Source of the DNA: a phage
Sequence record: PZ179883.1
Strand: one strand, 5' to 3'
DNA: 64,000 nucleotides
Under the pieces are notes generated by a model, which had not been told where the DNA came from, ran no database searches, and saw nothing but the letters and a program-made list of their open reading frames with translations. Both the position numbers and the translations under genes were made by a program. Of the stretch, positions 38,967-39,916 are shown in pieces (the stretch's first letter is position 1; every line of letters starts with the position of its first letter).

Positions 38967-39042
38967 TGGTCGAGGCAGTAGGGATCGAACCTACGACCTA
39001 GGACTTAGAAGGTCCTTGCTCTTCCTTCTGAGCTATGCCCCG
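38967..39042 (-). tRNA. tRNA-Arg (anticodon TCT), CCA encoded
   Basis: Manual fold: 7 bp acceptor, T-loop TTCGATC, anticodon loop CTTCTAA. Confidence 0.85.
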
Positions 39043-39046
39043 TAAT

Positions 39047-39128
39047 TGGGGTGACCGATGGGAGTCGAACCCATGACTACGAGAATCACAATCACAATCT
39101 CGAGTTCTACCAACTGAACTACGGCCAC
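39047..39128 (-). tRNA. tRNA-His-like (GTG) with 13-nt anticodon loop; possible pseudo-tRNA
   Basis: Acceptor, D-arm, T-arm and discriminator C resemble tRNA-His; anticodon stem CGAGA/TCTCG encloses TTGTGATTGTGAT. Confidence 0.55.
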
Positions 39129-39242
39129 ATTAATACCTACTCCAACAATCAAGATGTCTTCACACGAAATTAAGAGAAGAGTGATCAGTTCAACCCCTAT
39201 AATCGCGTCAAGTAGATATTAATGTGACAGTTGTCACAAATT

Positions 39243-39317
39243 TGGCGGACGTGATAGGATTCGAACCTATAACCAATCGCTTAACAGGCGATCGCTCTGC
39301 CATTGAGCTACACATCC
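39243..39317 (-). tRNA. tRNA-Asn (anticodon GTT), CCA encoded
   Basis: Manual fold: acceptor GGATGTG/CACGTCC, anticodon loop CTGTTAA, T-loop TTCGAAT. Confidence 0.85.
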
Positions 39318-39321
39318 AAAT

Positions 39322-39408
39322 TGGTGGGGAGTGGTGGAGTCGAACCACCCGAGTCGCAATGACAATGGATTTACAGTCCACACCGCTACCTCTACGGGAT
39401 AACTCCCC
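39322..39408 (-). tRNA. tRNA-Tyr (anticodon GTA), long variable arm, CCA encoded
   Basis: Manual fold: anticodon loop CTGTAAA, T-arm GGTGG-TTCGACT-CCACC. Confidence 0.8.
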
Positions 39409-39417
39409 AAATTAATT

Positions 39418-39492
39418 TGGTGGCCCTGGGTGGAATTGAACCACCATCTGGCGATTATGAGTCGCTTGCTTGAACCTTCCAGCTACAGGGCC
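39418..39492 (-). tRNA. tRNA with CAT anticodon (Ile2-type as in T4, or Met)
   Basis: Manual fold: acceptor GGCCCTG/CAGGGCC, anticodon loop CTCATAA. Confidence 0.75.
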
Positions 39493-39493
39493 T

Positions 39494-39569
39494 TGGTGCT
39501 GATTGACGGAATCGAACCGCCGACCTTCTCATTACAAGTGAGTTGCTCTACCTACTGAGCTAAATCAGC
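39494..39569 (-). tRNA. tRNA-Thr (anticodon TGT), CCA encoded
   Basis: Manual fold: acceptor GCTGATT/AATCAGC, anticodon loop CTTGTAA. Confidence 0.85.
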
Positions 39570-39574
39570 AAAAC

Positions 39575-39664
39575 TGGCGGAGGCGATAGGATTTGAACCT
39601 ATGAGTCGCCGGAGCGACTGCCGGTTTTCAAGACCGGTGCATTAAACCACTCTGCCACGCCTCC
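39575..39664 (-). tRNA. tRNA-Ser (anticodon TGA), long variable arm, CCA encoded
   Basis: Manual fold: anticodon arm CCGGT-CTTGAAA-ACCGG, T-loop TTCAAAT. Confidence 0.85.
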
Positions 39665-39666
39665 AG

Positions 39667-39740
39667 TCTCCGTGGCAGGATTTGAACCTACGACATTCTG
39701 CTCCCAAAGCAGACGCTCTACCAAACTGAGCTACACGGAG
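39667..39740 (-). tRNA. tRNA-Pro (anticodon TGG), CCA not encoded
   Basis: Manual fold: acceptor CTCCGTG/CACGGAG, anticodon loop TTTGGGA. Confidence 0.85.
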
Positions 39741-39750
39741 TAAATTAAAT

Positions 39751-39824
39751 TGGAGCGGATAATGAGAATCGAACTCACATCATCAGATTGGAAGTCTGAG
39801 GTAATACCATTATACGATATCCGC
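39751..39824 (-). tRNA. tRNA-Gly (anticodon TCC), CCA encoded
   Basis: Manual fold: acceptor GCGGATA/TATCCGC, anticodon loop CTTCCAA. Confidence 0.85.
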
Positions 39825-39829
39825 AAATT

Positions 39830-39916
39830 TGGTGCGAGAAGTGGGACTCGAACCCACAAGGAAATCATTCCGCAGCATTTTAAGTGCTGTGCCTTTACCA
39901 ATTTGACCATTCTCGC
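39830..39916 (-). tRNA. tRNA-Leu (anticodon TAA), long variable arm, CCA encoded
   Basis: Manual fold: acceptor GCGAGAA/TTCTCGC, anticodon loop CTTAAAA. Confidence 0.85.

Follow-up and report, generated by a model that had tools for sequence, protein, structure and literature searches.

Organization of the tRNA cluster

The window (the whole 64,000-nt stretch of phage DNA that was analysed, sequence record PZ179883.1) was scanned with ARAGORN, which called exactly ten tRNA genes, all on the minus strand between positions 38967 and 39916. The same ten scored above the gathering score of Rfam RF00005, tRNA-Tyr with a marginal 30.3 bits (cut-off 29). In transcription order the genes, with the programs that called them and their likeness to T4, are as follows:

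39830..39916, minus strand: tRNA-Leu(UAA); ARAGORN, Rfam; 87/87 identical to T4
39751..39824, minus strand: tRNA-Gly(UCC); ARAGORN, Rfam; 74/74 identical to T4
39666..39740, minus strand: tRNA-Pro(UGG), the sole gene without an encoded CCA; ARAGORN, Rfam; 63/75 identical to T4
39575..39664, minus strand: tRNA-Ser(UGA), CCA encoded, T2L-type allele; ARAGORN, Rfam
39494..39569, minus strand: tRNA-Thr(UGU); ARAGORN, Rfam; 73/76 identical to T4
39418..39492, minus strand: tRNA with a CAU anticodon; ARAGORN, Rfam
39322..39408, minus strand: tRNA-Tyr(GUA), a class II tRNA having a long variable arm; ARAGORN, Rfam
39243..39317, minus strand: tRNA-Asn(GUU); ARAGORN, Rfam
39047..39128, minus strand: tRNA-His(GUG) allele of 82 nt with a 6-nt tandem duplication; ARAGORN, alignment of relatives
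38967..39042, minus strand: tRNA-Arg(UCU); ARAGORN, Rfam; 48/79 columns shared with T4

For the 82-nt gene between Asn and Arg, ARAGORN gives no determined anticodon. Inter-tRNA spacers measure, from Leu to Arg, 5, 10, 1, 5, 1, 9, 4, 114 and 4 nt (at most 5 nt in six of the nine), and nine genes encode their CCA end, whereas Pro, the tenth, ends in ...GGAGAC. A preliminary description made from the sequence alone had listed ten genes in this order and with these identities, on which ARAGORN and Rfam agree; its count of nine encoded CCA ends was borne out gene by gene, its statement that most spacers are of 1–5 nt holds, and the compact polycistronic layout that it suggested is correct. Automated tRNA prediction, which it had proposed as a check, gave no conflicting identities and no tRNA-Gln. 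The 114-nt gap between Asn and His, the one long spacer, had gone unremarked.

Downstream of tRNA-Arg the unit continues with the following features:

38600..38950, minus strand: open reading frame of 116 aa, function unassigned, between tRNA-Arg and rnaD; phrog_3355, E = 7.9e-53
38488..38600, minus strand: rnaD homolog (species 2 stable RNA), about 80% identical to T4
38343..38481, minus strand: rnaC homolog (species 1 stable RNA), 138/139 identical to T4
38269..38292, minus strand: terminator-like hairpin with a T-run, closing the tRNA/stable-RNA unit

The 116-aa reading frame forms a variable cassette that T4 and teqhad lack. In the relative G29 a 'putative transcriptional terminator' is annotated at the position that matches the hairpin. 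In T4 the tRNAs are made from a polycistronic precursor that is matured by RNase P and 3' processing; carried over to the window, this would mean a compact polycistronic precursor transcribed from the minus strand and cut by host RNase P and 3'-processing enzymes.

Comparison with T4 and with the T2L-type module

The window locus and the T4 operon (Gln-Leu-Gly-Pro-Ser-Thr-Ile-segB-Arg-rnaD-rnaC) occupy the same genomic position on the same strand, with gene 1, 57A, 57B, ipI and trna.2-4 on one side and rnaD, rnaC and e.8 on the other. Gln and segB are present in T4 and missing from the window, and for Tyr, Asn and His the opposite holds; between Arg and rnaD, where the window has the 116-aa reading frame, T4 has none. 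A tblastn search of the window with T4 SegB returned nothing better than E = 2.

The proximal subcluster Leu-Gly-Pro-Ser-Thr is T4-like, the Gln slot retaining only a 9-nt stub. For Leu, Gly, Ser and Thr, 96–100% of the columns agree with T4 (tRNA-Ser is identical at 87/87 positions over the shared length). The preliminary description had read the cluster as the T4 order with three extra tRNAs inserted, that is, with Tyr, Asn and a His-like gene placed between 'Ile' and Arg, and the gene order is indeed superficially collinear with T4 (Leu-Gly-Pro-Ser-Thr-CAU...Arg). That reading did not stand and is now highly improbable, given that the supposedly retained flanking genes themselves differ from those of T4: the CAU tRNA shares only 47/77 aligned columns with T4 tRNA-Ile and Arg only 48/79, about 60% as between unrelated tRNAs, the anticodons being identical. 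BLAST homology to T4 ends inside the CAU gene and returns only at rnaD. At this place T4 has segB, and SegB is a known driver of the replacement of the T2L-type module (PMC2330249). Because CAU and Arg are only about 60% identical to T4 and the BLAST gap extends to rnaD, we take the distal half (CAU-Tyr-Asn-[structured RNA + His]-Arg-116-aa reading frame) on sequence evidence as an alternative module, in the place where T4 has Ile-segB-Arg.

In E. coli the CAU tRNA is closest to a gene annotated as tRNA-Ile (81.6% identity over the full length), and its acceptor stem (GGCCCUG/CAGGGCC) carries C4:G69 and C5:G68, which we take to be TilS determinants. It is most likely a tRNA-Ile2 of the lysidine type, reading AUA, and not a sequence ortholog of T4 tRNA-Ile.

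The alternative module has a published counterpart. A segB-less tRNA cluster with Met/CAU, Tyr, Asn and Arg was described for T2L, RB1 and RB3 in 2008 by Brok-Volchanskaya et al. (PMC2330249), with small open reading frames in the distal part and then the species I/II RNA genes, as in the window. The hallmarks of this type are found in the window, namely CAU, Tyr, Asn and Arg tRNAs together with the absence of segB. The T2L tRNA-Asn gene holds the preferred 27-bp recognition and cleavage site of SegB (PMC2330249), and the tRNA-Asn gene is identical across the T2-type relatives that were aligned. The tRNA-Ser genes of T2L and T4 differ at CCAG (PMC2330249); T4 Ser is without an encoded CCA, which is present in T2L as in the window. 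In the published description T2L carries tRNA-Gln but not tRNA-His, whereas the window has an HNH gene in place of Gln, has Thr, and has the additional [structured RNA + His] cassette.

The cluster region matched 1144 phage records, many of the closest annotating these tRNAs, ten or eleven in number. Since the T2L-type cluster has been known from 2008 and so many records match, the difference from T4 is not new: the window cluster is the common segB-less T2-type Tequatrovirus form, which is annotated in hundreds of Tequatrovirus genomes, and overall it is ordinary, with modest curiosities. Near-identical relatives (KarlGJung/Bas37, Shigella phage S2_01, UTI-E4, L14, a51 and others) match the window in all ten genes and in their order. 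KarlGJung/Bas37, S2_01, UTI-E4 and L14 share the HNH-for-Gln replacement and are 99.1–99.5% identical to the window over 1.8 kb; a51 is 98.8% identical.

Replacement of tRNA-Gln by an HNH gene

The Gln slot upstream of tRNA-Leu was aligned with T4 and Pinarejo, in which tRNA-Gln is intact, and with KarlGJung, which carries the same replacement as the window:

40536..40544, minus strand: tRNA-Gln stub, the first nine nucleotides of the gene (TGGGAATTA); alignment with T4, Pinarejo and KarlGJung
39923..40531, minus strand: free-standing HNH homing-endonuclease gene, putative, 202 aa; phrog_14736, motifs

No tRNA-Gln was called by ARAGORN anywhere in the 64-kb window, and only the 9-nt stub remains, so that the preliminary description was right to report no tRNA-Gln upstream of Leu and an HNH gene in its stead, the 202-aa reading frame lying directly upstream of Leu. 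The junction is base-exact, nucleotides 10 to 73 of tRNA-Gln being replaced and the flanks of the HNH allele and the Gln allele being identical; the HNH start codon (ATG) lies 4 nt past the stub and its stop codon 6 nt ahead of the 5' end of tRNA-Leu. A tRNA-Gln missed in the 114-nt gap was also considered, and was rejected: BLAST matches in Klebsiella phages labelled 'tRNA-Gln' overlap the gene edge by 2 nt, the Klebsiella phage stretch homologous to the gap being the Gln–His intergenic region, and an Rfam search (E ≤ 10) found no tRNA-like match in the gap.

The predicted protein matches phrog_14736 'HNH endonuclease' with E = 5.7e-124; the match to the Pfam HNH profile is weak and sub-threshold (17.3 bits, cut-off 21.4). 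Motifs were recognized at residue 35 (CAIC) and at residues 53–75 (DHIDGN...N...CPNCH), numbered from the ATG at 40531; together they correspond to an HNH (beta-beta-alpha-metal) catalytic motif with paired CxxC zinc ligands. In KarlGJung the gene is 9 nt (3 aa) longer than in the window, within a TAAAAATAT repeat. At ≥95% identity the HNH gene occurs in 64 phage records. All seven HNH-bearing genomes examined (the window and six further loci) lack tRNA-Gln, and in each of the six other loci the HNH gene abuts Leu despite four different distal modules. Of genomes that hardly differ elsewhere, some have the gene at this locus and others do not. Its product is regarded as a putative homing endonuclease; the gene has replaced nucleotides 10–73 of tRNA-Gln, with loss of the tRNA and presumably of the enzyme's own target site. 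The T5 genes hegC (F-TflI), hegD (F-TflII) and hegA (F-TflIV) are likewise free-standing HNH genes between or against tRNA genes, and hegD overlaps a tRNA-Gln pseudogene; the window protein is distantly related to hegA/F-TflIV (about 34% identity over 82% of the window HNH length), which resides in a different host genome.

A tRNA-His allele with a 13-nt anticodon loop

The 82-nt gene equals the 76-nt tRNA-His(GUG) of the relatives except for six added bases in the anticodon loop, the remainder being 100% identical, which makes the wording 'His-like' in the preliminary description apt. The near-identical relatives all carry the normal 76-nt gene. In the window the anticodon loop has 13 nt (UUGUGAUUGUGAU, 39085–39097), in the relatives 7 nt. 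None of the four stems (acceptor, D, anticodon and T) is disrupted; the tRNA covariance score is 56.6 bits for the 82-nt allele and 65.1 bits for the 76-nt allele. The duplication is unique among approximately 340 records containing this tRNA-His gene, and it was found in no other genome in INPHARED, IMG/VR, the JGI metagenomes or the GTDB genomes.

The duplication is probably either a null allele produced by slippage or a sequencing error. The duplicated GATTGT lies between two GATT repeats, which makes replication slippage the likely cause, and widening of the loop to 13 nt would most likely have inactivated decoding; we know of no 13-nt anticodon loop that supports decoding. An assembly or sequencing artefact, with the phage truly carrying a normal 76-nt gene, is a possibility to be taken seriously but is not the reading that we would bet on: it is in line with the restriction of the duplication to this one record, with the perfect identity of the rest of the gene and with the error-prone context of a short tandem repeat, but a clean in-register duplication of a 6-mer is exactly what replication slippage yields too, and this phage group can do without tRNA-His, as phiD1, T4_ev240, teqskov and T4 show by lacking it, so that a null allele would be tolerated. 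A functional non-canonical tRNA, with the 13-nt loop serving resistance to anticodon nucleases, a decoy role or an unusual mode of decoding, is very unlikely. The four intact stems and the 56.6 bits still obtained by the gene as a tRNA would suit it, and it has been proposed that altered anticodon loops let phage tRNAs escape host tRNases (PMC10264068); those proposed alterations are, however, substitutions in a 7-nt loop and not a near-doubling of it, and an allele found in no other genome gives no hint of having been selected or of having spread.

A conserved structured RNA adjoining tRNA-His

The 114-nt gap between Asn and His contains one further feature:

39129..39223, minus strand: conserved structured RNA of about 95 nt, flush with the 5' end of tRNA-His; folding, covariation

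In the predicted fold a terminal helix of 14 bp is combined with a central arm and a hairpin of 4 bp; a local hairpin (GUGACA/UGUCAC) lies in the other 19 nt of the gap (39224–39242). For the complete 114-nt spacer the folding energy is −32.7 kcal/mol (z = −4.36; none of 200 shuffles was as stable), and the 95-nt core by itself gives z = −3.56. The element precedes tRNA-His in Tequatrovirus, Karamvirus and Jiaodavirus at 77–89% identity, and it adjoins tRNA-His in about 370 phage records from these three Tevenvirinae genera. A covariance model of the element found a single copy at each His-bearing locus; the window gave no second copy, and T4 and the T2-type loci that lack His gave none. Spacer and tRNA-His together are an optional cassette, absent in phiD1 and T4_ev240; in teqskov the element is kept and tRNA-His lost. 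The element matched no Rfam family, and an Rfam search for known ribozymes, sRNAs and leader families in the spacer and in 38100–40700 returned only the tRNAs and sub-threshold noise. Kinship with rnaC or rnaD was rejected (nothing beyond chance 6–7-mers), as was a sigma-70 promoter in the spacer, for which there was a weak plus-strand match whose TTGACG hexamer is unconserved in Jiaodavirus-type sequences.

The tRNA-His that follows has U (T in the DNA) at position −1, in the window and in every homolog aligned; C73 is present, and the G−1 that a bacterial-type tRNA-His encodes opposite it is absent. T5 shows a similar arrangement. Its tRNA-His also has U at −1 (the annotated start is U before GUGGCUA), and an RNA annotated as 'stable RNA with unknown functions', RNAIII, abuts the 5' end of that tRNA. 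RNAIII is 106 nt long (window element about 95–114 nt) and is built similarly, in that a terminal helix of 12 bp encloses a multibranch loop with a long central hairpin and another hairpin of 4 bp; stability in vivo is known, per the record annotation, for the T5 RNA only. Sequence similarity between RNAIII and the element was not found, covariance model R1 giving 8.0 bits (E = 8.1) at T5 4285–4392; since this match is insignificant, the two are treated as analogous in position and architecture and no more. In the literature searched, no report on the function of RNAIII was found.

On these grounds it is tentatively suggested that the element may represent a previously undescribed conserved family of phage RNAs, fused to a tRNA-His with U at −1 and without G−1. 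In this view it would be freed by RNase P as a stable RNA, which might be the T-even counterpart of T5 RNAIII with a function tied to tRNA-His, such as directing its 5' maturation, or that of a decoy or regulator. A passive processing leader or decayed remnant without function, its structure reflecting the shared ancestry of a few lineages, has a fair claim to consideration while falling short of an even chance. The covariation draws on few events, since the independent lineages number three to five; the other long inter-tRNA gaps of Klebsiella phage Roth16 also fold better than shuffles (z −2.0 to −4.7); and teqskov retains the element after loss of tRNA-His. (Roth16 is an unclassified relative that groups with Jiaodavirus.) The pairing data speak against a passive spacer: 98.5% of cells are paired, compared with 40–52% when the partners are slid, five pairs are changed on both sides, and the observed covariation score was reached by none of 500 shuffles. 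In W14-1 the central arm is of different sequence, is aligned to the same arm and, as judged by eye, seems pairable. The loops of the element are better conserved than its stems, and an annotated stable RNA sits at the same position in T5, which likewise argue for more than a passive role.

Codon supply and defence

Codon usage of the phage (35% GC) was compared with that of E. coli, for which nominal values were used. The codons of the seven tRNAs that read A-ending codons are used 1.6 to 5.6 times more by the phage (TTA 2.2-fold, GGA 3.1-fold, TCA 2.7-fold, ACA 2.7-fold, ATA 3.2-fold and AGA 5.6-fold), and these tRNAs would supply codons that the phage uses more than E. coli does. For the tRNAs with GUN anticodons the ratios, on the same basis, are 1.55 (TAY), 1.66 (AAY) and 0.71 (CAY); Tyr, Asn and His fit codon supply less well, His being the worst fit. 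Phage tRNA-Tyr counters Septu and retron-Eco7 (PMC13096335, PMC11555353), the experimental support for an anti-defence role being for tRNA-Tyr only, in T5 and T6 (PMC13096335, PMC11555353). More plausibly, then, Tyr, Asn and His may back up host tRNAs that are targeted by tRNA-cleaving defences.

Interpretation and significance

Taken together, the region is very probably a Tequatrovirus tRNA/stable-RNA operon of the segB-less T2 type, a mosaic of cassettes in which the Gln and His slots are damaged. The proximal Leu-Gly-Pro-Ser-Thr half is that of T4 and the distal half an alternative module, the locus being made up of small cassettes that related phages have swapped, probably driven by homing endonucleases. 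Little is added by the cluster as such, which is another mosaic T-even tRNA locus shaped by homing endonucleases. The exchange of tRNA-Gln for the HNH gene provides a clear-cut example from nature in which a selfish nuclease gene spreads at the expense of a phage tRNA gene, and the enzyme is a candidate HNH homing enzyme targeting tRNA genes, beside the GIY-YIG enzyme SegB. The optional occurrence of Tyr, Asn and His, with His showing the weakest codon fit, is in line with the current view of some phage tRNAs as anti-defence spares and not as codon suppliers. The structured RNA next to a tRNA-His without G−1 has its parallel in T5 RNAIII, which points to a small stable RNA being paired repeatedly, and for unexplained reasons, with the tRNA-His of phages.

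Composition and setting of the tRNA cluster

The 64-kb window was searched with ARAGORN, which called ten tRNA genes at 38967-39916, all on the minus strand; the same ten scored above the gathering score of the Rfam tRNA model. Read in the direction of transcription, the series is Leu(UAA), Gly(UCC), Pro(UGG), Ser(UGA), Thr(UGU), a tRNA with anticodon CAU, Tyr(GUA), Asn(GUU), an 82-nt gene to which ARAGORN assigned no anticodon, and Arg(UCU). Spacers measure 5, 10, 1, 5, 1, 9, 4, 114 and 4 nt, CCA is encoded by all genes except Pro, and tRNA-Leu is immediately preceded by an HNH ORF. 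No tRNA-Gln was called in the whole window. The preliminary description had this layout right (ten tRNAs in this order, HNH beside Leu, CCA in nine genes, mostly short spacers, no Gln) and left out only the strand and the one long spacer.

The locus is the T-even tRNA and stable-RNA operon. As in T4, it is flanked on one side by dNMP kinase (gene 1), 57A, 57B, ipI and trna.4/3/2 and on the other by rnaD, rnaC and the e.x genes, and the 1.8 kb around the cluster match 1144 phage records, mostly Tequatrovirus of Escherichia, Shigella and Yersinia (best matches 99.5% identical). Features on the rnaC side are as follows.

38488-38600, rnaD homolog, about 80% identical to T4 rnaD
38343-38481, rnaC homolog, 138/139 identical to T4 rnaC
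~37743-38216, minus strand, ORF in the ~1.2-kb segment downstream of rnaC
37054-37617, minus strand, second ORF in the same segment

This ~1.2-kb segment (37054-38260), located just downstream of rnaC, is not present in T4; a 33-bp terminator-like sequence occurs twice and brackets it (37705-37737 and 38260-38292). Both of its ORFs start with MK(T/S)Y..(E/Q)FL.EA, comparable to MKTYQEFIAE in the ipI-like ORF at 41574-41819; we take these starts to resemble the signal that targets T4 internal proteins to the capsid, and the two ORFs, next to the tRNA operon, may encode additional internal head proteins of a variable kind. In phage G29, a 94-nt 'tRNA-Lys(ttt)' was called by ARAGORN within the rnaC homolog (1643-1736 of that locus) and annotated likewise by the depositors; ARAGORN made no such call in rnaC of the window or of T4. 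Species 1 RNA resembles a tRNA closely enough that T4-like genomes occasionally acquire a false tRNA annotation there.

Comparison of the distal module with T4 and T2L

Identity to T4 was determined gene by gene. Leu matches T4 at 87/87 positions, Gly at 74/74, Thr at 73/76 and Pro at 63/75, and Ser is identical across the common 87 nt; the window's tRNA-Ser has an encoded CCA, a feature noted for T2L and not T4 (PMC2330249). In contrast, the CAU tRNA matches T4 in 47/77 aligned columns and Arg(UCU) in 48/79, and BLAST homology stops within the CAU gene and restarts only at rnaD. These breaks mark the distal half as an alternative module and not an expansion of T4's, and the earlier proposal of a T4 order with three inserted tRNAs had to be abandoned. 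In T4 the Ile and Arg genes are separated by segB, a gene for a GIY-YIG homing endonuclease, whereas no segB is encoded in the 64-kb window. The arrangement is that described in 2008 for T2L, RB1 and RB3, whose segB-less cluster contains tRNA-Met(CAU), Tyr, Asn and Arg with small ORFs (Brok-Volchanskaya et al. 2008, PMC2330249); SegB cuts the T2L module preferentially in tRNA-Asn, and in T4 × T2L crosses 99.6% of progeny carried the T4 module in place of T2L's (PMC2330249). The cluster is genuine but unremarkable, a Tequatrovirus tRNA operon of the T2 type with a composition already annotated in many genomes; specific to the window are a shared HNH-for-Gln replacement and a private, probably inactivating duplication in tRNA-His.

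For the CAU tRNA, the best listed matches in 5,345 E. coli genomes were full length at 81.6% identity and all annotated as tRNA-Ile, of the CAU-anticodon ileX type. Its acceptor stem contains C4:G69 and C5:G68, which are determinants for lysidine synthetase TilS. On both grounds it was read as a tRNA-Ile2 decoding AUA, as in T4 yet with a different sequence; depositors have labelled it Ile in some relatives and Met in others. A 160-aa hypothetical ORF occupies the position of the window's tRNA-Thr in the HNH-bearing phages T4_ev240 and pSe_SNUABM_01 (L005 and L007, 3514-3996); here too a cassette has taken the place of a tRNA gene of this operon, and the ORF may correspond to 'trna.1' of T2L.

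Replacement of tRNA-Gln by an HNH gene

The HNH-less phages Pinarejo, G29 and T4 carry tRNA-Gln(UUG) 0-1 nt upstream of Leu. In the alignment of the window and its near-identical relative KarlGJung, the upstream flank is conserved through the first nine nucleotides of tRNA-Gln (TGGGAATTA, 40544-40536), followed by TATT and the ATG of the HNH ORF (40531); the HNH stop codon (39925-39923) lies 6 nt from the first base of tRNA-Leu. By this junction, the cassette stands exactly in place of Gln nucleotides 10-73. The 202-aa protein (CAIC...DHIDGN...N...CPNCH) matched a PHROG HNH family with E = 5.7e-124, the Pfam HNH match being sub-threshold (17.3 bits, cut-off 21.4). Its nearest characterised relatives, at ~34% identity, are hegA (F-TflIV) of T5/BF23, and T5 likewise has HNH endonuclease genes within its tRNA cluster. 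By tblastn, the gene is present at at least 95% identity in 64 phage records; an in-frame length difference of 9 nt at ~40250-40275, in a TAAAAATAT tandem repeat, distinguishes the 202-aa form from the 205-aa form of KarlGJung, and the former is 100% identical to the HNH protein of many other phages.

Six further HNH-bearing loci were compared (KarlGJung, T4_ev240, teqhad, pSe_SNUABM_01, phiD1 and HY03). Gln is absent and HNH adjoins Leu in 6/6, but the loci combine this one allele with four distinct distal modules (Thr present or absent, His present or absent, or segB present), which argues for an independently moving cassette, as expected of a homing-endonuclease gene with a predicted nuclease activity and target site. 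No discussion of the replacement was found in the literature searched.

Duplication in the tRNA-His anticodon loop

The 82-nt gene differs from the 76-nt tRNA-His(GUG) found in KarlGJung, Pinarejo and G29 only by six additional bases in its anticodon loop, which is 13 nt long (UUGUGAUUGUGAU, 39085-39097) where the normal loop is UUGUGAU. All four stems are intact; the covariance score is 56.6 bits vs 65.1 for the normal allele. As the normal allele already contains GATT-GT-GATT, slipped-strand mispairing there would yield exactly the 6-nt duplication. INPHARED held no full-length match with the duplication (best full-length matches 90% identical, corresponding to a 6-nt gap), and an exact-pattern scan of IMG/VR, JGI metagenomes and GTDB genomes found none, so the duplication is private to this sequence. 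With no tRNA-His in T4, phiD1, T4_ev240 or teqskov, the gene is clearly dispensable, and a recent null allele is the favoured reading; a sequencing artefact is about half as probable, and a functional oddity takes the small remainder.

Predicted expression and possible role

Upstream of the nine-nucleotide Gln remnant the sequence is essentially identical to T4's; there, TGCTTTA precedes TATTAT by 12 nt (40638-40614), an arrangement resembling a MotA-dependent middle promoter of T4. By analogy with T4, a transcript would pass through the HNH ORF, the ten tRNAs, the structured element described below, ORF116, rnaD and rnaC and end at a terminator-like hairpin (38292-38269); RNase P and 3' exonucleases would then free the individual RNAs, CCA addition being needed for Pro only.

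Codon usage in 52 long window ORFs (35% GC) was compared with E. coli values. Codons of the T4-type tRNAs occur at 1.6-5.6 times the E. coli frequency, and ratios for the additional tRNAs are 1.55 (TAY), 1.66 (AAY) and 0.71 (CAY), His codons being the only ones of the set without enrichment. All three additional tRNAs (Tyr, Asn, His) have GUN anticodons; colicin E5 targets tRNA-Tyr, His, Asn and Asp. tRNA-Tyr is depleted by Septu (PMC13096335) and by the retron-Eco7 PtuAB effector (PMC11555353), and phage tRNA-Tyr genes counter both. In the Septu study T4, without tRNA-Tyr, was sensitive and T2 resistant, and T6 escaped through amplification of tRNA-Tyr together with segB (PMC13096335); the general hypothesis of phage tRNAs acting against host tRNA-targeting defence has been put forward (PMC10264068). 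The anticodons and these studies together make an anti-defence role of the Tyr-Asn-His module plausible by analogy.

A conserved structured RNA adjoining tRNA-His

The 114-nt Asn-His spacer, which holds a ~95-nt element (39129-39223), folds at -32.7 kcal/mol (z = -4.36; 0/200 shuffles as stable). A missed tRNA-Gln was rejected (annotation overlap only 2 nt), as was kinship with rnaC or rnaD, which are unrelated, and no matching Rfam family was found. The Asn-Arg distance is 4 nt in phiD1 and T4_ev240, so spacer and His form one optional cassette of ~195 nt. Homologs with 77-89% identity lie directly 5' of tRNA-His, between tRNA-Gln and tRNA-His, in Klebsiella and Enterobacter phages of the genera Karamvirus and Jiaodavirus, and the element is present in about 356-368 records. 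The consensus consists of a 14-bp terminal helix, whose last pair uses tRNA-His position -1, enclosing a central arm and a 4-bp hairpin. In ten distinct sequences, from only three to five lineages, 98.5% of cells were paired vs 40-52% with partners slid by 1-3 columns; five pairs changed on both sides, and 0/500 shuffles reached the observed covariation score. The many G·U pairs imply that the structure forms only on the tRNA-sense transcript. A covariance model found exactly one copy per His-bearing locus and none elsewhere.

In Escherichia phage teqskov (L017, 393-526), the order is Leu-Gly-Pro-Ser, element, Arg, without Thr, CAU, Tyr, Asn or His, and the last two terminal-helix pairs are changed (TTGCT vs TTAAT); the element can thus persist without tRNA-His. 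Three inter-tRNA gaps of Klebsiella phage Roth16 (L010 856-1108, 1675-1770, 1856-1921), unclassified but grouping with Jiaodavirus, also fold beyond mononucleotide shuffles (z -2.9 to -4.7), and structured spacer RNAs may be general in such tRNA clusters.

In bacteria, HisRS normally recognises tRNA-His through a G-1 that the genome encodes. Position -1 (39129), opposite the C73 discriminator, is T and not G in the window, in every aligned Karamvirus/Jiaodavirus homolog (L010-L016) and in T5 (L026 4284), whose tRNA-His is annotated with that U as first base. The T5 record also lists 'RNAIII, stable RNA with unknown functions' (106 nt), flush with the tRNA-His 5' end and of similar fold (12-bp terminal helix, long hairpin, 4-bp hairpin); against the element's covariance model it showed no significant similarity (8.0 bits, E about 8). 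As a tentative working reading, RNase P cleavage at tRNA-His may free the element as a stable RNA, with the small number of lineages and the structured gaps in other tRNA clusters as caveats. The most interesting by-product of the analysis is this conserved structured RNA, fused to a tRNA-His lacking G-1 and with a positional analogue in T5.
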